NCBI RefSeq assembly: GCF_013122565.1
Contig: NZ_CP053258.1
From: Escherichia coli
Lineage (GTDB): Bacteria; Pseudomonadota; Gammaproteobacteria; Enterobacterales; Enterobacteriaceae
Strand: one strand, 5' to 3'
Length of the DNA: 64,000 nt
Below, in pieces: positions 178-55,451 of the stretch. The notes under the pieces are model-generated. The model was not told the DNA's origin and searched no databases. It saw only the letters and a list, made by a program, of their open reading frames with translations. Made by a program: the position numbers and the translations under genes. Each line of letters opens with the position of its first letter. Position 1 is the stretch's first letter.

Positions 178-533
178 ATCCGCTCCGTCGTTATGGTTAT
201 AAAAACGTGACGAATATACCTACATTGGAGTAACAAATGATCCTACATAGATCACATTACATATGATAATTCACCCTTTATTGATCTGGATTAATTTAGA
301 AGTTGTATTGAAAATCCTGGTTAATGTGATTTAAATCAATTTTTAAATATTTTCGCTACGCAAATATTAACTCGCTCGCCACTTGCCGCGGTTCGCCCAC
401 GCCTGAAGGCCAGCAATTACCTCCGCTTTACAAAGATATGCTTTTCCATACAAGACCTGATGCTGCCACCCGAGGCTTAACCAGGGTACAATTGCCCGCT
501 AATTAACACCTGCATAAAACTCAAGGAGAGTGC

Positions 534-15295: not shown

Positions 15296-15772
15296 GGTTA
15301 GCTCCGAAGCAAAAGCCGGATAATGTTAGCCATAAATAAGGTTGAAAAGACGCGCTGACAATACGCCTTTTGACGGCATTTTTCACCTCCTAACTACTTA
15401 AAATTGCTATCATTCGTTATTGTTATCTGGTTGTGCAAAACATGCTAATGTAGCCACCAAATCATACTACAATTTATTAACTGTTAGCTATAATGGCGAA
15501 AAGCGATGCTGAAAGGTGTCAGCTTTGCAAAAATTTGATTTGGATCACGTAATAAGTACCCAGAAGTGAGTAATCTTGCTTACGCCACCAGGAAGTGACG
15601 CATTAGAGATAAATAGCTCTAATGTTTAAACTCTTTTAGTAAATCACAGCGAGTGTGAGCGCGAGTAAGCTTTTGATTTTCATTGGTTAAGCAAATCATC
15701 ACCGCACTGACTATACTCTCGTATTCGAGCAGATGATTTACTAAAAAAGTTTAACATTATCAGGAGAGCATT

Positions 15773-25266: not shown

Positions 25267-26109
25267 ATGCATTCACTCCAACGTAAAGTTCTGCGTACTA
25301 TTTGTCCGGACCAAAAAGGTCTGATCGCACGTATTACCAATATTTGCTACAAGCACGAGTTAAATATCGTACAGAACAATGAATTTGTTGATCACCGTAC
25401 CGGGCGCTTTTTTATGCGCACGGAACTGGAAGGGATTTTTAATGATTCCACCCTGCTGGCGGATCTCGATAGCGCATTGCCAGAAGGCTCCGTGCGTGAG
25501 CTGAATCCTGCCGGTCGTCGCCGGATAGTGATTCTGGTCACTAAAGAAGCGCATTGCCTTGGCGATTTGTTGATGAAAGCCAATTATGGCGGCCTGGATG
25601 TCGAAATCGCGGCAGTGATTGGTAACCACGATACTTTACGTTCTCTGGTTGAGCGTTTTGATATACCGTTTGAGCTGGTAAGCCATGAAGGGTTAAGCCG
25701 CAACGAGCACGATCAAAAGATGGCGGATGCCATTGATGCTTATCAACCTGACTACGTGGTGCTGGCGAAGTATATGCGGGTATTAACACCGGAATTTGTG
25801 TCACGCTTCCCGAATAAAATCATCAATATTCACCATTCCTTCCTGCCAGCGTTTATCGGCGCACGTCCTTATCACCAGGCCTATGAACGTGGCGTGAAGA
25901 TTATTGGCGCAACCGCTCACTATGTGAATGACAATCTGGACGAAGGCCCAATCATCATGCAGGACGTTATTCATGTCGATCATACCTACACAGCTGAAGA
26001 TATGATGCGCGCAGGTCGTGACGTCGAGAAAAACGTCTTAAGTCGTGCGCTTTACAAAGTACTGGCGCAGCGCGTCTTTGTTTACGGTAATCGCACGATT
26101 ATTCTTTAA
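25267..26109 (+). CDS. purU: Formyltetrahydrofolate deformylase PurU
   Basis: 280-aa ORF with N-terminal ACT domain and formyltransferase core. Confidence 0.95.
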   Translation: MHSLQRKVLRTICPDQKGLIARITNICYKHELNIVQNNEFVDHRTGRFFMRTELEGIFNDSTLLADLDSALPEGSVRELNPAGRRRIVILVTKEAHCLGDLLMKANYGGLDVEIAAVIGNHDTLRSLVERFDIPFELVSHEGLSRNEHDQKMADAIDAYQPDYVVLAKYMRVLTPEFVSRFPNKIINIHHSFLPAFIGARPYHQAYERGVKIIGATAHYVNDNLDEGPIIMQDVIHVDHTYTAEDMMRAGRDVEKNVLSRALYKVLAQRVFVYGNRTIIL

Positions 26110-28101: not shown

Positions 28102-29636
28102 GGATGCGGCTCCGTTTTGCTGGTCACATCGATGGCATCGATACGACGGCTGTTGAACAGATTGAATTTGGTATCTGAACCGTGGCAGCCATCACCAAAG
28201 GTAAAGCCGCAGCCATTTTTCTCCGGGAAGGCTTCCCGTGCCAGTTCACGATGACTACTCGGCACCACAAAGCGATCTTCGTAGTTAGCAATCGCCAGAT
28301 AACGGTACATCTCCTGTGCCTGGGCTTCGGTCAGACCGACCTCTTCCAGCGCACGGGTATCAACTTTACCGTCAACGGTTTCAGCACGTTTGTAATGACG
28401 CATCGCCAGCATACGTTTCAGCGCGCGCAGTACCGGTTTGGTATCACCGGCGGTCAGCAGATTCGCCAGATACTGTACCGGAATACGCAGGCTTTCGACG
28501 TCTGGCAGAATGCCGTTGCTGCCCAGCTCACCCGCATCTGCTGCAGACTGAATCGGAGACAGAGGCGGCACGTACCAGACCATCGGCAGTGTGCGATATT
28601 CTGGATGCAGCGGCAGCGCCAGTTTCCATTCCATTGCCATTTTATAAACCGGCGACTGCTGTGCGGCTTCAATAACGCTCAGCGGAATACCGTCTTTAAT
28701 CGCCTGCTCGATGACTTTCGGATCGTTCGGATCGAGGAACACGTCCAGCTGACGCTGGTAAAGATCTTTCTCGTTCTCGGTGCTGGCTGCACGTTCAATC
28801 GCGTCGGCATCGTATAACAGCACGCCGAGATAACGGATACGACCGACACAGGTTTCTGAGCACACGGTCGGCTGACCCGCTTCAATACGCGGATAGCAGA
28901 AGATGCACTTCTCAGACTTACCGCTCTTCCAGTTGAAGTAGATTTTTTTGTACGGGCATCCAGTGATGCACATACGCCAGCCACGGCATTTATCCTGGTC
29001 GATCAGGACGATGCCATCTTCTTCACGCTTGTAAATCGCACCGCTCGGGCAGGTCGCCACACATGCCGGGTTCAGGCAGTGTTCGCACAGGCGCGGCAAA
29101 TACATCATGAAGGTGTTTTCGAACTGGCTATACATCGCCTTCTGGATGTTGTCGAAGTTCTTGTCTTTCGCCAGTTTGTCAAACTCACCGCCCAGGTCAT
29201 CTTCCCAGTTCGGCCCTTTTTCGATTTTTGCCATCCGTTCGCCGGTAATCAGCGAACGCGGACGGGCAATCGGCTGCGCTTTGCTGCCTTCCGGCGCGGT
29301 ATGCAGGTTCTGATAATCAAAATCGAACGGCTCGTAATAATCGTCGATCCCCGGCAGATGCGGGTTAGCAAAGATTTTACCCAGCAGCATGGCTCGGTTA
29401 CCCATGCGCGGTTGCAGTTTGCCATTGATTTTACGGATCCAGCCGCCTTTGTATTTTTCCTGGTTTTCCCAGTCAGTCGGGAAGCCCTGGCCCGGCTTGG
29501 TTTCCACGTTGTTGAACCACGCGTATTCCACGCCTTCACGGCTGGTCCAGACGTTTTTACAGGTAACTGAACAGGTGTGGCAGCCGATGCACTTATCGAG
29601 ATTCAGCACCATGCCGACTTGTGAACGAATTTTCAT
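28098..29636 (-). CDS. narH: Respiratory nitrate reductase beta subunit (Fe-S) NarH
   Basis: 512-aa ORF with multiple CxxCxxCxxxC ferredoxin-type clusters. Confidence 0.97.
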   Translation of the reverse strand: MKIRSQVGMVLNLDKCIGCHTCSVTCKNVWTSREGVEYAWFNNVETKPGQGFPTDWENQEKYKGGWIRKINGKLQPRMGNRAMLLGKIFANPHLPGIDDYYEPFDFDYQNLHTAPEGSKAQPIARPRSLITGERMAKIEKGPNWEDDLGGEFDKLAKDKNFDNIQKAMYSQFENTFMMYLPRLCEHCLNPACVATCPSGAIYKREEDGIVLIDQDKCRGWRMCITGCPYKKIYFNWKSGKSEKCIFCYPRIEAGQPTVCSETCVGRIRYLGVLLYDADAIERAASTENEKDLYQRQLDVFLDPNDPKVIEQAIKDGIPLSVIEAAQQSPVYKMAMEWKLALPLHPEYRTLPMVWYVPPLSPIQSAADAGELGSNGILPDVESLRIPVQYLANLLTAGDTKPVLRALKRMLAMRHYKRAETVDGKVDTRALEEVGLTEAQAQEMYRYLAIANYEDRFVVPSSHRELAREAFPEKNGCGFTFGDGCHGSDTKFNLFNSRRIDAIDVTSKTEPHP

Positions 29637-32600
29637 TTTACGCTCTCCTGTACCTGGTCATTGCCTTCGCCATCTAACCAGTCAATGTTCTTCATCTTAC
29701 GCACTACAACAAACTCATCGCGGTTAGAACCTACGGTGCCGTAGTAGTTAAAGCCGTATGCCAGATGGGCATAGCCGCCGATCATATGCGTCGGTTTCGG
29801 CGTGATACGGGTGACCGAGTTATGGATACCACCACGCTGTTGGGTAATTTCCGAACCAGGCAGGTTAACGATACGTTCCTGCGCGTGGTACATCATGGTC
29901 ATCCCTGCCGGAACACGCTGGCTGACAACCGCACGGGCAGTCAGAGCACCGTTGCTGTTGAATACTTCAATCCAGTCGTTATCGGCGATACCCAGATCTT
30001 TGGCATCGGCTTCACTCAACCAGACCACCGGACCACCGCGACCTAAAGTTAGCATCAGCAGGTTGTCGCTGTAGGTGGAGTGGATACCCCACTTCTGGTG
30101 CGGCGTCAGGAAGTTGAGCGCTTTTTCCGGGTTGCCGTTGGATTTCTGGCCCATCACTTCTTTCACCGAACGGGTGTCGATCGGCGGACGATAAACCAGC
30201 AAGCTTTCACCGAAATCACGCATCCACTGGTGATCCTGATACAGTTGCTGACGGCCCGAGAGCGTACGCCACGGGATCAGCTCGTGAACGTTGGTGTAAC
30301 CGGCGTTGTAAGAAACGTGTTCATCTTCAAGGCCAGACCAGGTCGGGCTGGAGATAATTTTGCGCGGCTGTGCCTGAATATCGCGGAAGCGAATCTTCTC
30401 GTCTTCTTTATTCAGCGCCAGATGCGTATGGTCACGACCGGTAAACTCGCTCAGGGCAGCCCAGGCTTTCACGGCTACCTGACCGTTGGTTTCCGGTGCC
30501 AGCGTCAGGATCATGTCTGCCGCATCAATTGCGGTGTTCAGCATGGGCTGGCCTTTTGCCGGACCTTCCGCTTTGGTGTAGTTGAGCTTACGCAGCAGAT
30601 CCATCTCGCTCTGGGTGTTCCAGGCAATCCCTTTACCGCCATTACCTATTTTCTCCATCAGCGGGCCGATAGAGGTAAAGCGTTCGTAAGTCGCCGGATA
30701 ATCGCGCTCTACGACCATAATGTGTGGCGCGGTTTTACCTGGGATCAGGTCGCACTCGCCTTTTTTCCAGTCTTTCACATCCAGCGGCTGCGCCAGTTCA
30801 GCGGCAGAGTCGTGCTGGATAGGCAGCGTGACGATGTCGGTTTCTTTACCCAGATGACCGACGCACACTTCGGAGAATTTCCTGGCAATGGCTTTGTAGA
30901 TTTCCCAGTCGCTTTTCGCTTCCCAGGCCGGATCGACCGCCGCAGACAGCGGGTGAATAAACGGATGCATATCCGAAGTATTCATGTCGTCTTTTTCGTA
31001 CCAGGTCGCCGTCGGCAAAATGATGTCGGAATAGAGACAGGTGCTCGACAGACGGAAGTCCAGCGTCACCACCAGATCCAGCTTGCCTTCCAAACCATTG
31101 TCCTGCCAGTCCACTTCTTCCGGCTTCACGCCGCCCTGCTGCCCCAGATCTTTACCCTGGATACCGTGCTCCGTCCCCAGCAGGTACTTGAGCATAAACT
31201 CATGACCTTTACCGGAAGAACCGAGCAGGTTAGAACGCCAGATGAACAGGTTGCGCGGGTGGTTTTTACCGTTTTCTGGTTGTTCTGCCGCAAAACGGAT
31301 GGAACCCTCTTTCAGGGATTTCACCGTATAGTCCACCGGATTCATCCCGGCTTTTTCCGCTTCTCCAGCGATAGTCAGCGGGTTAGTGCCTAACTGCGGT
31401 GCAGACGGCAGCCAGCCCATGCGTTCTGCACGGACGTTAAAGTCGATCAGGTGTCCGGTATAACGGGATTTATCCGCCATCGGCGACAGCAACTCTTCCG
31501 CAGTCACGGTTTCATAACGCCACTGGCTGGAGTGGTTATAGAAATAAGAAGTGCTGTTCATGTGACGCGCCGGACGCTGCCAGTCAAGGGCAAACGCCAG
31601 CGGCTGCCAGCCGGTTTGCGGACGCAGTTTTTCCTGACCTACATAGTGCGCCCAGCCGCCCCCGCTCTGACCGACACAGCCGCAGAAAATCAGCATGTTG
31701 ATCAGACCACGATAGTTCATATCGAGGTGATACCAGTGGTTCAGCCCCGCACCGACGATAATCATCGAACGACCGTGCGTTTTATCAGCGTTATCGGCAA
31801 ATTCACGGGCGATGCGAATAATCTGGCTGCGAGAAACGCCGGTAATCTGCTCGGCCCAGGCCGGGGTATAAGCTTTCACATCGTCATAGCTGGTTGCACA
31901 GTTAACGTCGTTCAGGCCACGTTCCAGACCATAGTTTGCCAGCGTCAGATCATAAACGGTGGTCACCAGGGCGGTGCTGCCATCAGCCAGTTGCAGGCGT
32001 TTAACCGGCAGTTTGTGTAGCAGAATGTTTTCCAGTTCCACTTTGTTGAAGTGTTCCGTGCCGTCGCCACCAAAGTACGGGAAGCCCACCTCAGCGATCT
32101 CATCCTGGCTACCCAGCAGGCTCAGTTGCAGCTCGGTTTCTTCGCCAGTTTTGCCGTCGCGCTGCTCAAGATTCCATTTGCCCTTCTCGCCCCAGCGGAA
32201 GCCAATAGAACCGTTCGGCGCAACCATTTCGCCATTGGTATTAAAGGCGACAGTTTTCCATTCCGGATTGTTTTCCTGGCCCAGCGCATCAACCAGATCA
32301 GCTGCGCGCAGCATACGACCTGCAGCGTAGTAACCGTCGCGTTCTTCCAGCATCACCAGCATCGGCATGTCGGTATAGCGACGCACATAGTCGGTGAAAT
32401 ACTGGCTTGGGTTGTCGAGGTGGAATTCACGCAGCATTACGTGGCCCATCGCCAGCGCCATTGCCGCATCGGTGCCTTGTTTTGGGGCCAGCCATAGATC
32501 GCACAGTTTGGCGATTTCAGCGTAGTCTGGTGTGACGGCAACAGTCTTGGTGCCTTTGTAACGCACTTCAGTAAAGAAGTGAGCATCCGGGGTTCGCGTC

Positions 32601-33376
32601 TGCGGCACGTTTGAACCCCAGGCGATGATGTAGCTGGAGTTGTACCAGTCAGCAGATTCCGGTACGTCAGTTTGCTCGCCCCAGGTTTGCGGAGACGCAG
32701 GAGGCAGGTCGCAGTACCAGTCGTAGAAGCTTAAGCAAGTACCGCCAATCAGCGAGAGATAGCGCGCACCCGACGCGTAAGAAACCATCGACATTGCCGG
32801 AATTGGCGAGAAACCAGCGACACGGTCCGGGCCGTAGTTTTTGATGGTGTAAACGTTAGATGCGGCGATCAGTTCGTTCACTTCCTGCCAGGAAGAACGA
32901 ACAAAACCACCGCGTCCACGCGCCTGCTTAAAGCTTTTCGCTTTATCGGCGTCTTCAATGATAGAAGCCCATGCCTCAACCGGATCGCTATGCAGCGCCT
33001 TCGCTTCACGCCACATTTTCATCAGGCGTTTGCGCATCATCGGGTATTTCAGGCGGTTGGCACTGTAAAGATACCAGGAGTAGCTGGCACCGCGCGGGCA
33101 GCCGCGAGGTTCATGGTTTGGCAGATCCGGACGGGTACGCGGATAGTCAGTCTGCTGGGTTTCCCAGGTGACCAGACCGTTTTTGACGTAGATTTTCCAG
33201 CTGCAGGAGCCGGTGCAGTTTACCCCGTGGGTAGAGCGGACGATTTTGTCATGCTGCCAACGCTGGCGATATCCATCCTCCCAGTCACGGTTGGTATTGA
33301 GAAGCTGGCCATGCCCATCGGCAAAGGTTTCACCCTTCTGTTTGAAGTAGCGAAACCGGTCCAGGAATTTACTCAT
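29633..33376 (-). CDS. narG: Respiratory nitrate reductase alpha subunit NarG
   Basis: 1247-aa ORF MSKFLDRFRYFKQKGETFADGHGQ, molybdopterin oxidoreductase. Confidence 0.98.
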   Translation of the reverse strand: MSKFLDRFRYFKQKGETFADGHGQLLNTNRDWEDGYRQRWQHDKIVRSTHGVNCTGSCSWKIYVKNGLVTWETQQTDYPRTRPDLPNHEPRGCPRGASYSWYLYSANRLKYPMMRKRLMKMWREAKALHSDPVEAWASIIEDADKAKSFKQARGRGGFVRSSWQEVNELIAASNVYTIKNYGPDRVAGFSPIPAMSMVSYASGARYLSLIGGTCLSFYDWYCDLPPASPQTWGEQTDVPESADWYNSSYIIAWGSNVPQTRTPDAHFFTEVRYKGTKTVAVTPDYAEIAKLCDLWLAPKQGTDAAMALAMGHVMLREFHLDNPSQYFTDYVRRYTDMPMLVMLEERDGYYAAGRMLRAADLVDALGQENNPEWKTVAFNTNGEMVAPNGSIGFRWGEKGKWNLEQRDGKTGEETELQLSLLGSQDEIAEVGFPYFGGDGTEHFNKVELENILLHKLPVKRLQLADGSTALVTTVYDLTLANYGLERGLNDVNCATSYDDVKAYTPAWAEQITGVSRSQIIRIAREFADNADKTHGRSMIIVGAGLNHWYHLDMNYRGLINMLIFCGCVGQSGGGWAHYVGQEKLRPQTGWQPLAFALDWQRPARHMNSTSYFYNHSSQWRYETVTAEELLSPMADKSRYTGHLIDFNVRAERMGWLPSAPQLGTNPLTIAGEAEKAGMNPVDYTVKSLKEGSIRFAAEQPENGKNHPRNLFIWRSNLLGSSGKGHEFMLKYLLGTEHGIQGKDLGQQGGVKPEEVDWQDNGLEGKLDLVVTLDFRLSSTCLYSDIILPTATWYEKDDMNTSDMHPFIHPLSAAVDPAWEAKSDWEIYKAIARKFSEVCVGHLGKETDIVTLPIQHDSAAELAQPLDVKDWKKGECDLIPGKTAPHIMVVERDYPATYERFTSIGPLMEKIGNGGKGIAWNTQSEMDLLRKLNYTKAEGPAKGQPMLNTAIDAADMILTLAPETNGQVAVKAWAALSEFTGRDHTHLALNKEDEKIRFRDIQAQPRKIISSPTWSGLEDEHVSYNAGYTNVHELIPWRTLSGRQQLYQDHQWMRDFGESLLVYRPPIDTRSVKEVMGQKSNGNPEKALNFLTPHQKWGIHSTYSDNLLMLTLGRGGPVVWLSEADAKDLGIADNDWIEVFNSNGALTARAVVSQRVPAGMTMMYHAQERIVNLPGSEITQQRGGIHNSVTRITPKPTHMIGGYAHLAYGFNYYGTVGSNRDEFVVVRKMKNIDWLDGEGNDQVQESVK

Positions 33377-33467
33377 CGGTTTTCTCCTGTGGGAGCCTGT
33401 CGGCCCTCTGATAAATCGACATTGCTAATGTTTAAGGGCAAGGTAACGCTCTGAAACAGCGTGGGAA

Positions 33468-33481
33468 TTGATAACGATCAA
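33468..33481. promoter_or_regulatory. FNR box (TTGAT-N4-ATCAA) in the narG promoter
   Basis: Perfect ttgataacgatcaa about 90 bp upstream of the narG start codon. Confidence 0.8.
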
Positions 33482-33891
33482 GAGTGATGGGGATGAAAAA
33501 TAAAGTAAATTCCTAAGATACCCCTTTAGGATAATTAACAGCCACAACATAACAGACTGTAAATTAAGACATTTTATACCTGTAGTTATTTAAACTATTG
33601 AGATTTTTATGCAGATGGGTATTAAGGAGTATTCCCCATGGGTAACATATTAATGGCTCTTAATGAAATCCGGCGAAATAAACCATATAACATTAGTATG
33701 TTGTAACTAAATAACGCATAAAAAAAGCGCGACATCATGCCGCGCAAAGGATAATCAAATATTTTACTCTATATAATTCGGTTTACAGGAAGGCGGCAAG
33801 TGAATGAATCCCAGGAGCTTACTAAAGTAAGTGACTGGGGTGAATGAACGCAGCCGCAGCACATGTAACCCGAAGTATGACGAGTAACGGT

Positions 33892-35283
33892 TTATTTTTT
33901 AGAATGCCGACCATATACCGCCCAGGTAATCACTACGCAGGCGATATAGAAAATCAAAAATACCTTCATTGCGCCGACTGGCGAACCCGTTAATGCCAGC
34001 GAGCTACCAAACGCTTTCGGGATAAAGAAGCCACCAATCGCGCCAATCGCAGAGATGAAACCCAGCGCCGCCGCCGTGTCGGTTGCCGCTTCACGCATCG
34101 CACGTTCGTCAGAACCCCCTTCTGCTTTCACGCGATCCATTGTCAGTTTACGGAAGATCACTGAAATCATCTGGAAAGTGGAACCACTACCCAGCCCAGC
34201 TGTCAGGAACAGCGCCAGGAAGACCGCGAAGAACGCCATGAAGCTTCCGCCCTGCCCGTCAGTCGGTAAGGTCAGGAACAGCAGGCCGCTGAAAATCGCC
34301 ATCAGAATAAAGTTCACCAGCGTGACACGAGTTCCGCCCAGACGGTCAGATAATGCACCACCTGCAGAACGCGCCAGCGCACCAATAAACGGCCCGAAGA
34401 AAGCGTATTGCAGAATCTGAACATCCGGGAACTGCGTTTTTGACAGCATCGCAAAGCCCGCGGAGAAGCCGATAAAGGAGCCGAAGGTTGCCAGATACAG
34501 CAGGCTCATAATCCACAGATGACCCCGTTTGAGTACCGGCAACTGCTCCTTGATGGAGGCTTTCGAGGTAGCAAGATCGTTCATGCCAAACCACGCCGCA
34601 ATGGTGAAGATGGCAAGGAACGGCACCCATATCCAGGACGCATTCGCCAGATACAGCTCAGTCCCATCCGGCTGTTTGACGCCCTGGCTACCAAATACTG
34701 CGAAAATCGACAGTGATACCACCAGCGGAGCAACCAACTGCATGACGCTGACGCCCATATTTCCCAGACCACCATTCAGACCCAGCGCGCCACCCTGCTT
34801 CTGTTTCGGAAAGAAGAAGCTGATGTTTGCCATACTGGATGCGAAGTTCGCGCCAGCAAAGCCGCACAGCAGAGAGATGATGATGAAGACGCTATAAGGC
34901 GTGGAGGTATCCTGCACGGCAAAACCCAGCCAGACGCAAGGAATAATCAGAATACCGGTGCTGAACGCCGTCCAGCGACGACCACCGAAGATAGGAACCA
35001 TAAAAGAGTATGGAACACGTAATAACGCGCCAGAAACCGAAGGCAGCGCAGTCAACATAAATAGCTGATCGGTCGTAAAATTAAAACCGACTTTCGGTAA
35101 GTTCACCGCAACAGCGCTGAACAACATCCATACGCAAAACGCCAGCAGCAGACAGGGAACGGAAATCCACAGGTTGCGGCTGGCAATACGTTGACCGCGT
35201 TGTTGCCAGAACGCAGGATCTTCCGGTCGCCAATCTGTAATGACAGCTCCAGTAGCCCTTTCGGGGGCGGATGAGTGACTCAT
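33892..35283 (-). CDS. narK: Nitrate/nitrite antiporter NarK (MFS, 463 aa)
   Basis: MSHSSAPERATGAVITDWRPEDPAFWQ, 12-TM MFS; track ORF starts 2 codons upstream. Confidence 0.96.
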   Translation of the reverse strand: MSHSSAPERATGAVITDWRPEDPAFWQQRGQRIASRNLWISVPCLLLAFCVWMLFSAVAVNLPKVGFNFTTDQLFMLTALPSVSGALLRVPYSFMVPIFGGRRWTAFSTGILIIPCVWLGFAVQDTSTPYSVFIIISLLCGFAGANFASSMANISFFFPKQKQGGALGLNGGLGNMGVSVMQLVAPLVVSLSIFAVFGSQGVKQPDGTELYLANASWIWVPFLAIFTIAAWFGMNDLATSKASIKEQLPVLKRGHLWIMSLLYLATFGSFIGFSAGFAMLSKTQFPDVQILQYAFFGPFIGALARSAGGALSDRLGGTRVTLVNFILMAIFSGLLFLTLPTDGQGGSFMAFFAVFLALFLTAGLGSGSTFQMISVIFRKLTMDRVKAEGGSDERAMREAATDTAAALGFISAIGAIGGFFIPKAFGSSLALTGSPVGAMKVFLIFYIACVVITWAVYGRHSKK

Positions 35284-35342
35284 AGACACCTCTGATACTC
35301 GTTTCGATGTCTGCCACCTTAGTGTCTGTAGCTAAAGGCAAT

Positions 35343-35356
35343 TTGATGTAAATCAA
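35343..35356. promoter_or_regulatory. FNR box 1 of narK promoter (TTGAT-GTAA-ATCAA)
   Basis: Perfect inverted repeat tttgatgtaaatcaaa ~65 bp upstream of the narK start. Confidence 0.8.
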
Positions 35357-35380
35357 ACGATAAGATAACTTTATCTATCA

Positions 35381-35394
35381 TTGATATTTATCAT
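35381..35394. promoter_or_regulatory. FNR box 2 of narK promoter (TTGAT-ATTT-ATCAT)
   Basis: Near-consensus site centred 38 bp upstream of box 1, the spacing expected for tandem -41.5/-79.5 FNR sites. Confidence 0.7.
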
Positions 35395-35621
35395 TACCCA
35401 TAGTGAGTACAGTGATTTCATAAAAATTATGAGATTTTTCACGGTGCTGTAAAATCCCTACCCTTACCGATGTAAAGCGACTAACCACACGGCAAATAAG
35501 GAGTAACTCTTTCCGGGTATGGGTATACTTCAGCCAATAGCCGAGAATACTGCCATTCCAGAATGCATCGTCACATTCATTAAGGTTATTGCTCATTTAA
35601 AGCCTGAAGGAAGAGGTTTAC

Positions 35622-37418
35622 ATGCTTAAACGTTGTCTCTCTCCGCTCACCCTGGTTAATCAGGTTGCGCTTATTGTGTTGCTTTCTACTGCTATTGGAC
35701 TGGCAGGGATGGCGGTTTCTGGCTGGCTGGTGCAAGGCGTTCAGGGCAGCGCCCATGCGATCAACAAAGCGGGATCGCTGCGCATGCAAAGTTACCGTCT
35801 GTTGGCGGCAGTGCCATTAAGCGAGAAAGACAAACCCTTAATTAAAGAGATGGAACAAACGGCATTTAGCGCCGAGTTGACTCGAGCAGCAGAACGAGAC
35901 GGACAACTGGCGCAATTACAGGGTTTACAAGATTACTGGCGTAATGAACTGATCCCTGCGCTGATACGTGCACAAAACCGCGAAACGGTGTCAGCGGATG
36001 TCAGCCAGTTTGTTGCCGGGCTTGATCAGCTGGTATCTGGTTTTGACCGCACCACGGAAATGCGCATTGAGACAGTGGTACTAGTCCATCGGGTAATGGC
36101 GGTATTTATGGCACTTTTACTGGTGTTCACTATTATTTGGTTGCGGGCGCGACTGCTACAACCGTGGCGGCAACTGCTGGCAATGGCGAGTGCCGTCAGC
36201 CATCGCGATTTTACCCAACGCGCGAACATCAGCGGGCGCAACGAAATGGCGATGCTTGGAACTGCATTGAACAATATGTCTGCAGAACTGGCCGAAAGTT
36301 ATGCCGTACTTGAGCAGCGGGTTCAGGAGAAAACCGCCGGGCTGGAGCATAAAAATCAGATCCTCTCTTTTTTATGGCAGGCCAACCGCCGATTGCATTC
36401 CCGCGCCCCGCTGTGTGAACGCCTGTCACCTGTACTCAACGGCTTACAGAATTTAACCCTGCTACGTGATATCGAACTGCGGGTGTATGACACTGATGAT
36501 GAAGAGAATCATCAGGAGTTTACCTGCCAGCCAGATATGACTTGTGATGATAAAGGCTGCCAGCTCTGCCCGCGCGGCGTATTACCCGTTGGTGATCGCG
36601 GCACGACCCTGAAGTGGCGGCTGGCTGACTCTCATACGCAGTACGGTATTTTGCTGGCGACCCTGCCGCAGGGGCGTCATCTTAGCCATGATCAACAACA
36701 ACTGGTGGATACCCTGGTTGAACAACTCACCGCCACGCTGGCGCTGGATCGCCATCAGGAACGTCAGCAACAGTTGATCGTGATGGAAGAGCGTGCCACC
36801 ATTGCGCGCGAACTGCATGATTCTATTGCCCAATCTCTCTCTTGCATGAAGATGCAGGTGAGTTGTTTACAGATGCAGGGCGATGCGCTGCCAGAAAGCA
36901 GCCGCGAACTGTTAAGTCAGATCCGTAACGAACTGAATGCATCCTGGGCGCAGTTGCGTGAATTGCTCACCACATTCCGCTTGCAGCTCACCGAGCCTGG
37001 ATTACGTCCGGCGCTGGAGGCGAGTTGCGAAGAGTACAGCGCCAAATTTGGCTTCCCGGTGAAGCTGGATTATCAATTGCCGCCTCGCCTGGTGCCTTCG
37101 CATCAGGCAATCCACTTGTTGCAAATTGCCCGTGAGGCATTAAGTAACGCCCTCAAACATTCGCAAGCGAGTGAAGTCGTGGTGACGGTGGCGCAAAACG
37201 ATAATCAGGTCAAACTGACCGTCCAGGATAACGGCTGCGGCGTGCCTGAAAATGCCATCCGCAGCAATCACTACGGCATGATAATAATGCGCGACCGTGC
37301 GCAAAGTTTACGAGGCGATTGCCGCGTCCGCCGTCGTGAATCAGGTGGCACCGAAGTGGTGGTCACCTTTATTCCCGAAAAAACTTTCACAGACGTCCAA
37401 GGAGATACCCATGAGTAA
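35622..37418 (+). CDS. narX: Nitrate/nitrite sensor histidine kinase NarX
   Basis: 598-aa ORF with two TM helices flanking a periplasmic domain, HAMP, and HisKA_3/HATPase ([11 protein letters not shown]). Confidence 0.97.
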
Positions 37419-38061
37419 TCAGGAACCGGCTACTATCCTGCTGATTGACGATCACCCGATGCTGCGAACTGGCGTAAAACAGCTTATCAGTATGGCACCA
37501 GATATCACCGTGGTTGGCGAAGCGAGTAATGGCGAACAGGGTATTGAACTGGCGGAATCTCTTGATCCCGATCTGATCCTGTTAGATCTCAATATGCCCG
37601 GCATGAACGGTCTGGAAACGCTGGATAAACTGCGCGAAAAGTCCCTCTCAGGGCGCATTGTGGTATTCAGCGTCTCTAACCATGAAGAAGATGTGGTCAC
37701 CGCACTGAAACGCGGCGCGGATGGTTATCTGTTAAAAGATATGGAACCGGAAGATCTGCTGAAAGCATTGCATCAGGCAGCTGCTGGCGAAATGGTATTA
37801 AGCGAAGCATTAACGCCTGTTCTGGCCGCCAGCTTGCGCGCTAACCGTGCCACTACTGAGCGCGATGTTAACCAGTTAACCCCACGCGAGCGCGATATTC
37901 TCAAGCTGATTGCCCAGGGTTTGCCGAACAAGATGATTGCCCGCCGCCTGGATATCACCGAAAGCACAGTAAAAGTGCACGTCAAGCACATGCTGAAGAA
38001 AATGAAGCTCAAGTCTCGCGTGGAAGCAGCGGTATGGGTGCATCAGGAGCGCATTTTCTGA
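37411..38061 (+). CDS. narL: Nitrate/nitrite response regulator NarL (216 aa)
   Basis: [24 protein letters not shown] receiver domain plus LuxR-type HTH; start overlaps narX end by 8 bp. Confidence 0.97.
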
Positions 38062-54243: not shown

Positions 54244-54359
54244 GTCGTTGTCTGCGGCATTTTTGCCGAGTGCCGTGTATAATAGGCAAAGTTATTTCCA
54301 TTTCTGCAATCTGTTAGCAATAACAGGTTGATTATTAAGATATTAAGGTGATTTAAATC

Positions 54360-55451
54360 ATGGGATTCAAATGCGGTATCGTCGGTTTGCCCAACGTCGG
54401 GAAATCTACCCTGTTCAACGCGCTGACCAAAGCCGGTATTGAAGCGGCCAACTTTCCATTCTGCACCATTGAGCCAAACACAGGCGTCGTACCAATGCCT
54501 GATCCTCGCCTGGATCAACTGGCTGAAATCGTAAAACCGCAACGTACGCTTCCCACGACCATGGAATTTGTCGATATCGCCGGTCTGGTAAAAGGCGCAT
54601 CGAAAGGCGAAGGTCTGGGTAACCAGTTCCTGACTAACATCCGTGAAACCGAAGCGATCGGTCACGTTGTTCGCTGCTTTGAAAATGACAACATCATTCA
54701 CGTTTCCGGCAAAGTTAACCCAGCGGACGATATTGAAGTTATCAACACCGAACTGGCGCTGGCAGACCTCGACACCTGCGAACGTGCGATTCATCGCGTA
54801 CAGAAGAAAGCCAAAGGTGGCGATAAAGACGCGAAAGCTGAGCTGGCGGTACTGGAAAAATGCCTGCCGCAGCTGGAAAACGCAGGTATGCTGCGCGCGC
54901 TGGATTTAAGCGCTGAAGAGAAAGCGGCTATTCGTTACCTGAGCTTCCTGACGCTGAAACCAACAATGTACATCGCCAACGTTAACGAAGACGGTTTTGA
55001 AAACAACCCGTATCTTGACCAGGTGCGTGAAATCGCGGCGAAAGAAGGTTCTGTTGTGGTTCCGGTTTGTGCTGCTGTTGAAGCAGACATTGCCGAACTG
55101 GACGACGAAGAACGTGACGAGTTTATGCAGGAGCTTGGGCTGGAAGAGCCGGGCCTGAACCGTGTGATCCGTGCCGGTTATAAGCTGCTGAACCTGCAAA
55201 CTTACTTCACCGCTGGAGTGAAAGAAGTGCGTGCATGGACAATTCCGGTTGGTGCAACCGCGCCGCAGGCAGCGGGCAAAATCCATACTGATTTTGAAAA
55301 AGGCTTTATCCGTGCACAAACCATCTCGTTTGAAGATTTCATCACTTACAAAGGTGAACAAGGCGCGAAAGAAGCAGGCAAAATGCGTGCAGAAGGTAAA
55401 GATTACATCGTTAAAGATGGCGATGTGATGAACTTCCTTTTCAACGTCTAA
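54360..55451 (+). CDS. ychF: Ribosome-binding ATPase YchF (Obg-family)
   Basis: 363-aa [26 protein letters not shown] with P-loop and C-terminal TGS domain. Confidence 0.97.

Follow-up and report, generated by a model that had tools for sequence, protein, structure and literature searches.

The divergent narK/narX control region of Escherichia coli: a family-wide FNR site for narK and an Escherichia-only FNR-type site over a weak narX promoter

Related FNR promoters and the locus

The narK promoter of Escherichia coli K-12 (Kolesnikow 1992; Bonnefoy & DeMoss 1992; Li 1994; Myers et al., 2013) is among the most thoroughly studied anaerobic promoters of E. coli, and the region analysed here is the same locus. 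Its FNR 14-mer, the -41.5 position of that 14-mer and its ChIP occupancy are as published, and the only difference from K-12 is a T/C exchange at 35416, which is nothing of substance; taken by itself, the region has little significance of its own. The narG promoter resembles it in having a perfect, ChIP-bound FNR box and in being co-regulated with narK by FNR, but that box is single and no promoter of a divergent gene lies in a shared region. The promoters of ompW, yfiD, and cydA resemble it in that two FNR-type 14-mers lie in one ChIP peak region. In those three promoters both motifs exceed the threshold of Myers et al. (2013), whereas at narK only the promoter-proximal motif (Box 1) does and the distal one (Box 2) does not. 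FNR-repressed promoters, namely that of fnr (autoregulation) and that of narX according to Takahashi et al. (1994), offer a further likeness: Box 2 overlies the -35/spacer region of the detected narX starts, and FNR repression of narX in vitro has been reported, although the expression lists of Myers et al. (2013) show no evident repression in vivo.

The window, that is, the whole stretch of DNA analysed, comprises 64 kb. Its segment 35200..35700 (501 bp) is 100% identical to E. coli chromosomes annotated with narK and narX, which bears out the gene names given in an initial annotation of this DNA, and the same stretch was found in 5415 of 5426 complete E. coli genomes. As a side observation, 13 of the 5421 narK-narX matches in complete E. 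coli assemblies sit on plasmid-labelled records. The start coordinate of the initial annotation, 35290, falls 6 bp inside the divergent spacer, whose true start is 35284 (Table 1). The narK translation begins MSHSSAPERATG. Published genome positions (x) were converted to window positions by w = 35622 - (x - 1276841), a conversion that lands exactly on the ATG codons of narK and narX and on Box 1. Over 35361..35420, the window equals the 51-mers of K-12 given by Kim et al. (2012) save one base, at 35416, where the present strain has T and K-12 has C; this base lies between the narX start at 35420 and its candidate -10 hexamer, TACAGT. No known RNA family was found in 33300..35700 by an Rfam scan. 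The region is the divergent narK/narXL control region of E. coli, and is already known as such.

Table 1. Features of the narK/narX locus and other FNR sites of the 64-kb window (window coordinates)
Feature	Coordinates	Strand	Position or length	Sequence	Remark
narG	29633..33376	-			RefSeq annotation of identical record
narK CDS, nitrate/nitrite transporter	33892..35283	-			ORF list and RefSeq annotation of identical record
narK/narX divergent spacer	35284..35621		338 bp		
narX CDS, nitrate sensor kinase	35622..37418	+			ORF list and RefSeq annotation
narL, downstream of narX	37411..38061	+			RefSeq annotation of identical record
narK 5' UTR	35284..35308	-	25 nt	GAGGTG	ribosome-binding site
narK -10 hexamer	35321..35316	-	start 35308 comes 7 nt after	TAAGGT	read from sequence
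Box 1, FNR site	35343..35356		-41.5 of narK	TTGATGTAAATCAA	class II activator position
Box 2, weaker FNR-type site	35381..35394		-79.5 of narK; -32.5 / -23.5 of narX starts 35420 / 35411	TTGATATTTATCAT	
NarL heptamer, perfect	35395..35401		-90 of narK	TACCCAT	
NarL heptamer, near-perfect	35403..35409		-98 of narK	GTGAGTA	TACTCAC on minus strand
NarL heptamer, perfect	35505..35499	-	-194 of narK	TACTCCT	
NarL heptamer, near-perfect	35519..35513	-	-208 of narK	TACCCGG	
NarL heptamer, perfect	35525..35519	-	-214 of narK	TACCCAT	
Conserved A/T-rich block	35421..35443		centre about -124 of narK	AAAAATTATGAGATTTTTCAC	candidate IHF bending site
Weak narX promoter(s)	35399..35420	+		CATAGT; TACAGT	candidate -10 hexamers at 35399..35404 and 35408..35413
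ompW promoter FNR sites	281..294; 326..339			TTGATCTGGATTAA; GTGATTTAAATCAA	both ChIP-bound (Myers et al., 2013, Table S6: 1311927, 1311882)
adhE/ychE FNR site	15535..15548				ChIP-bound (Myers et al., 2013, Table S6)
FNR box inside purU, perfect	25733..25746			TTGATGCTTATCAA	unbound in ChIP-seq (Myers et al., 2013, Table S6: 1287368)
narG promoter FNR box, perfect	33468..33481				ChIP-bound (Myers et al., 2013, Table S6)

Core promoter of narK and its NarL/IHF region

Box 1 is recorded by Myers et al. (2013) as its reverse complement, TTGATTTACATCAA, at 1277107 (PatSer 17.06, narX/narK, Table S6) under a ChIP-seq peak. In their Table 1, for which start sites were taken from EcoCyc and Kim et al., the position of the box is -41.5 of narK. 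From this placement we infer a narK start at 35308 (A, minus strand), with which the box positions of the initial annotation are compatible. FNR peaks at narK have been reported at 1277080-82 by ChIP-seq (Myers et al., 2013) and at 1277131 by ChIP-chip in an earlier study, and narK carries the label 'Activated' in the differential-expression operon list of Myers et al. (2013), with a value of 0.068 in the supplementary expression table. At the -35 position of narK, 35343..35338, the sequence is AATTGC and no -35 hexamer was recognisable, as expected for an activator-dependent promoter.

For the comparison of orthologous spacers, a NarX scan with one genome per species returned 80 loci, 79 of them usable, which together with the E. 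coli reference gave 80 spacers. NarX identity in the 80 loci was 67-99%, and the genera included Escherichia, Citrobacter, Salmonella, Enterobacter, Klebsiella, Kosakonia, Kluyvera, Cedecea, and others. The divergent narK/narX order was kept in all 80, with spacers of 294-354 bp, and none of the 80 had a mismatch in either half-site of Box 1, which lay 62.5-68.5 bp from the narK ATG. The narK -10 was likewise conserved in all 80 loci, with the pattern TAAnGT kept across Enterobacteriaceae, and 35284..35296 was kept in at least 80% of the 80 species, except for one column at 60-80%. With its consensus box, the -41.5 position, a -10 without a -35, and this conservation, together with occupancy and expression from the literature, the narK promoter is of the class II FNR type. 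Under anaerobiosis, an FNR dimer occupies Box 1 and recruits RNA polymerase as a class II activator of narK.

The sole sigma-70 consensus match in the spacer is TTTACA-16-CATAAT (35453..35426, minus strand), directed toward narK; its start would fall near 35419 and abut the narX start 35420, the two pointing away from each other. This candidate was rejected, as such matches showed no excess over shuffles and it is not conserved in other genera.

Upstream of the core promoter, a pattern scan for perfect NarL heptamers (TACYYMT) found three in the spacer against 0.52 expected (P = 0.017), accompanied by near-perfect ones (Table 1). A canonical 7-2-7 NarL site at 35395..35409 was rejected because the heptamers there are separated by 1 bp, not 2. 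In the right heptamer, TGAGTA was kept by 80% or more of the 80 species, with four of the six columns reaching 95% or more; the left one, TACCCAT, showed loose conservation. Next to this pair stands TACAGTG (35408..35414; CACTGTA when read on the opposite strand), which PMC2718512 gives as a NarL site annotated from Li et al. 1994. A C/T polymorphism at 35397, with about 1002 of 5417 E. coli records carrying the variant, turns the perfect heptamer at -90 into TATCCAT. The heptamers and the A/T-rich block all fall in conserved stretches, 35395..35409, 35421..35443, and 35497..35533, and in the upstream one the core GGTATGGGTATAC was kept in at least 95% of the 80 species, the flanks less so. 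Outside Escherichia (L008-L081), the block corresponding to 35421..35443 is near-invariant as AAAAAAgnTGTGGTTTTTCAC, with a GTG...CAC inverted repeat.

We take narK to require IHF, with a site near -125 (presumably that of Kolesnikow 1992 and RegulonDB). The A/T-rich block 35421..35443 is the probable IHF bending site, and IHF ChIP-chip enrichment is flagged at the narK locus in Table S6 of Myers et al. (2013). Heptamer enrichment, conserved blocks, and the IHF flag together give this region the properties of a NarL/IHF nitrate-induced promoter. During nitrate induction, NarL-P binds the heptamers near -90/-98 and those from -194 to -214 of narK, and the A/T-rich block near -124 probably provides an IHF bend between the two heptamer groups. 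The neighbouring narG promoter follows the same NarL/IHF logic, its NarL sites presumably lying about 200 bp upstream with IHF between. We hold this core, FNR activation of narK from Box 1 and nitrate induction by NarL and IHF, to be shown or established with high confidence.

The FNR box pair and the narX promoter

The two FNR boxes stand exactly where the initial annotation had put them. Box 1 is a perfect TTGAT-N4-ATCAA and Box 2 departs from it at one base, the last; their centres, 35349.5 and 35387.5, are 38 bp apart as claimed. A position weight matrix (PWM) was built, symmetrised, from 62 ChIP-bound sites in Table S6 of Myers et al. (2013), with the narK site left out, and the scan that the initial annotation had proposed as a check identified both boxes as FNR matches. 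Box 1 (20.6 bits) was the top match in the 64 kb, and Box 2 (13.9 bits) ranked eighth in the window and outscored 16 of the 62 training sites. When up to one mismatch was allowed, the window contained eight consensus matches; shuffles gave 3.0 +/- 1.7, and none of 100 reached eight. In 338-bp sequences simulated by a first-order Markov model built on the spacer, a second site as good as Box 2 arose in 0.8% (P = 0.008). The FNR box observation is more than chance. Table S6 of Myers et al. (2013) includes five of the other six matches in the window, and four of these are ChIP-bound; the purU box is perfect and yet unbound, and a perfect consensus is therefore insufficient for occupancy. The ompW sites, 45 bp apart, form a second FNR box pair, at the window edge. 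A further 14-mer, GTGATTTAAATCAT at 54348..54361, approximately inside the ychH CDS, scored 14.6 bits, above Box 2.

The initial annotation considered 38 bp to be the spacing expected for tandem FNR sites. The ChIP-bound pairs in Table S6 of Myers et al. (2013) do not support such a general spacing, being 45 bp (ompW), 52 bp (cydA), and 53 bp (yfiD) apart. The 38 bp correspond to 3.6 helical turns. They are simply the difference between -41.5 and -79.5, which we take to be the positions of the narK FNR sites in EcoCyc/RegulonDB.

The comparative spacers separated the two boxes. Box 2 was intact in five of seven Escherichia species-level loci, the E. coli reference included; it was weakened in L003 (TTGATATTTATGAT, 8.4 bits, the key C changed to G) and destroyed by three changes in L002 (TGAATATTTATTAT). 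A counterpart of at least 8 bits was found in none of the 73 non-Escherichia loci, where the same place reads, for example, CTAAAATTTATCAT in Citrobacter and AAAAAAAAGTCAT in Enterobacter. In the column profile of Box 2, only A, A, and the final CAT were conserved, and this CAT leads into the conserved NarL element. Taken over the whole spacer, 20% of the columns differ among the seven species of Escherichia. By this measure Box 2 varied at the background rate (3 of 14 columns), Box 1 in one of 14 columns (in the non-contact N4), the narK -10 in none of six, and the upstream NarL block in two of 37. Within E. coli, two 70-mers, both with intact boxes and differing only at 35397, account for 4380 + 1002 of 5417 records (about 99%); this fixation is compatible with constraint, within-species diversity being too low to tell.

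Two other elements of the Escherichia spacers may be mentioned. Between the boxes, at 35359..35379, lies an Escherichia-only, GATAA-rich imperfect palindrome (GATAAGATAAC / TTTATCTATC) that weakly resembles Fur-box hexamers. Three loci (L002, L004, and L005) carry an FNR-like 14-mer whose place, 190.5 bp ahead of the narK ATG, corresponds to about 35467..35480 of the window: CTGATGTAAATCAC (11.4 bits) in E. whittamii and Escherichia sp. E1V33, and CTGATGTAAAGCAA (9.7 bits) in Escherichia sp. MOD1-EC7003, where E. coli has CCGATGTAAAGCGA, which is no match.

The initial annotation also reasoned that the spacer must hold the narXL promoter, and narX start sites are indeed found in it. Kim et al. 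(2012, Table S1) reported narX starts at 1277043 (3 reads, leader of 202 nt) and 1277052 (2 reads, 211 nt), from cultures not grown for nitrate respiration, and their printed 51-mers place these starts at 35420 and 35411 of the window. Each start has a candidate -10 hexamer 6 nt before it (Table 1) and a poor -35 region, and genera other than Escherichia do not conserve the TACAGT hexamer. The narK and narX promoters face away from each other, their starts separated by about 110 bp. A conserved TATACT (35524..35529, plus strand) lies inside the most conserved block of the spacer and overlaps the NarL heptamer at -214 of narK. To judge from its sequence and conservation, it could be the main narX -10 instead; no start for it was found in the start-site data examined. 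Relative to the starts of Kim et al. (2012), Box 2 overlies the -35/spacer region of both (3 and 2 reads), and Box 1 lies at -70.5 and -61.5.

Possible roles of the distal box

The initial annotation called the box pair established architecture. This holds for Box 1, which is listed at -41.5 under a ChIP peak, but is unsupported for Box 2, which is below the PWM threshold used by Myers et al. (2013) and not in their Table S6; they recognise a single FNR motif at narK, and Box 2 occurs in none of the 73 loci outside Escherichia. Set against what characterises a tandem FNR arrangement, Box 2 has a matrix match beyond chance and lacks both recognition as a motif genome-wide and conservation in orthologs. 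The ChIP-seq summit at 1277082 (window 35381) lies closer to Box 2 than to Box 1. We rejected the summit as a guide to the occupied box, since summit-motif offsets at other promoters in the same data are 8-50 bp; ChIP-seq cannot separate sites 38 bp apart, and occupancy of Box 2 is possible at that resolution. A full-text literature search outside the 1992/1994 primary papers found no mention of Box 2 or of -79.5 at narK. The 1992 work of Kolesnikow and of Bonnefoy & DeMoss reportedly describes a -79.5 box of narK. Nothing on narK/narX regulation was found in PMC11363960, PMC4280137, or PMC3974632. A comparative-genomics paper states that Fnr represses narXL transcription, with citation of the in vitro study of Takahashi et al. 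(1994); narX is missing from the FNR-dependent operons that Myers et al. (2013) list, where narK appears as activated, and repression in vivo may therefore be negligible.

We propose that Box 2 is an FNR-type site of lower affinity that the Escherichia lineage acquired and that stands outside the conserved narK activation module. When occupied, it would most likely hinder RNA polymerase at the narX promoter, which would correspond to the FNR repression reported in vitro, and its effect on narK would probably be at most modulatory. Since the narX core promoter and Box 2 overlap, the box may act for narX and not for narK; a dimer of FNR bound there would explain the in vitro repression of narX, which a dimer on Box 1 would not obviously do. 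To this account of Box 2, drawn from its sequence and placement, we give even odds. Taken as a whole, the known control region with its core and this reading of Box 2 has a probability of about 0.5.

The initial annotation implied a different role, in which both boxes bind FNR and jointly activate narK, the dimer at -79.5 contacting the alpha C-terminal domain of RNA polymerase and raising anaerobic induction. The score of Box 2 relative to the 16 weaker ChIP-bound sites, its P value of 0.008, the intact pair in about 99% of E. coli records, the summit between the boxes, and the listing of narK FNR sites at -41.5 and -79.5 in EcoCyc/RegulonDB would all agree with joint activation. However, Box 2 is missing from 73 of 73 non-Escherichia orthologs that keep all the other elements, and within Escherichia it is lost or damaged in two species, with variation at the background rate. 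Salmonella lacks Box 2, yet its narK expression requires FNR and NarL (spacer comparison and literature). Moreover, Myers et al. (2013) count a single motif, a separation of 3.6 turns would set the dimers on different faces of the helix, and natural FNR pairs share no common spacing. Joint activation of narK is thus unlikely. Rather than a regulatory site, Box 2 might be a young look-alike in A/T-rich DNA, made by about three substitutions beside a pre-existing ATCAT and without regulatory consequence in vivo. The Citrobacter sequence at the same place, three changes away, fits this origin, as do the background-rate variation within the genus, the score under the threshold of Myers et al. (2013), the many higher-scoring sites of Table S6 that are unbound (the perfect purU site included), and the absence of narX from the list of FNR-dependent operons. 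Against it stand the P value of 0.008 for such a match in the spacer, the location of Box 2 in an open promoter region adjoining a strongly occupied FNR site, and the in vitro repression of narX, which needs an operator near the narX promoter, Box 2 being the sole candidate besides Box 1. A look-alike without consequence is rather unlikely. As an Escherichia-only element varying at the background rate on a weak narX promoter, Box 2 is likelier to be a narX operator particular to this lineage, or else a neutral look-alike, than a conserved site of narK co-activation.

It is very improbable that the FNR resemblance is incidental and that another binder of A/T-rich DNA (Fis, IHF, or a Fur-like protein) recognises the GATAA/TATC repeats at 35359..35394. 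The Escherichia-specific, GATAA-rich imperfect palindrome does run into Box 2, and IHF enrichment is flagged at the locus. In PMC1805755, Kolesnikow 1992 is cited for Fis acting with Fnr/ArcA at narK, and the title of that work, as cited there, names iron as a regulatory signal. A Fur box, however, was matched by the GATAA repeats at only about 11 of 19 positions by hand, and the Fur-box reading was rejected. FNR itself carries an Fe-S cluster, which explains an iron effect more simply.

Returning to Box 2 as an FNR-type site acting on narX, a bolder form can be offered only tentatively from the sequence comparison: a recent, Escherichia-specific gain may have made the shared spacer bifunctional, with an extra FNR dimer on the narXL core promoter flanking the narK complex. 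The only point here beyond the textbook is a modest one, namely that the distal box is an Escherichia-only, background-rate element on a weak narX promoter. It illustrates that close agreement with the consensus next to a genuine site is no guarantee of a conserved mechanism, as Box 1 is invariant in the family and Box 2 belongs to one genus. If the bifunctional spacer is real, it would amount to a minor, lineage-specific change in the wiring of a textbook regulon, in which oxygen status would directly trim the synthesis of the nitrate sensor in Escherichia and not in Salmonella, Citrobacter, Klebsiella, or Enterobacter.
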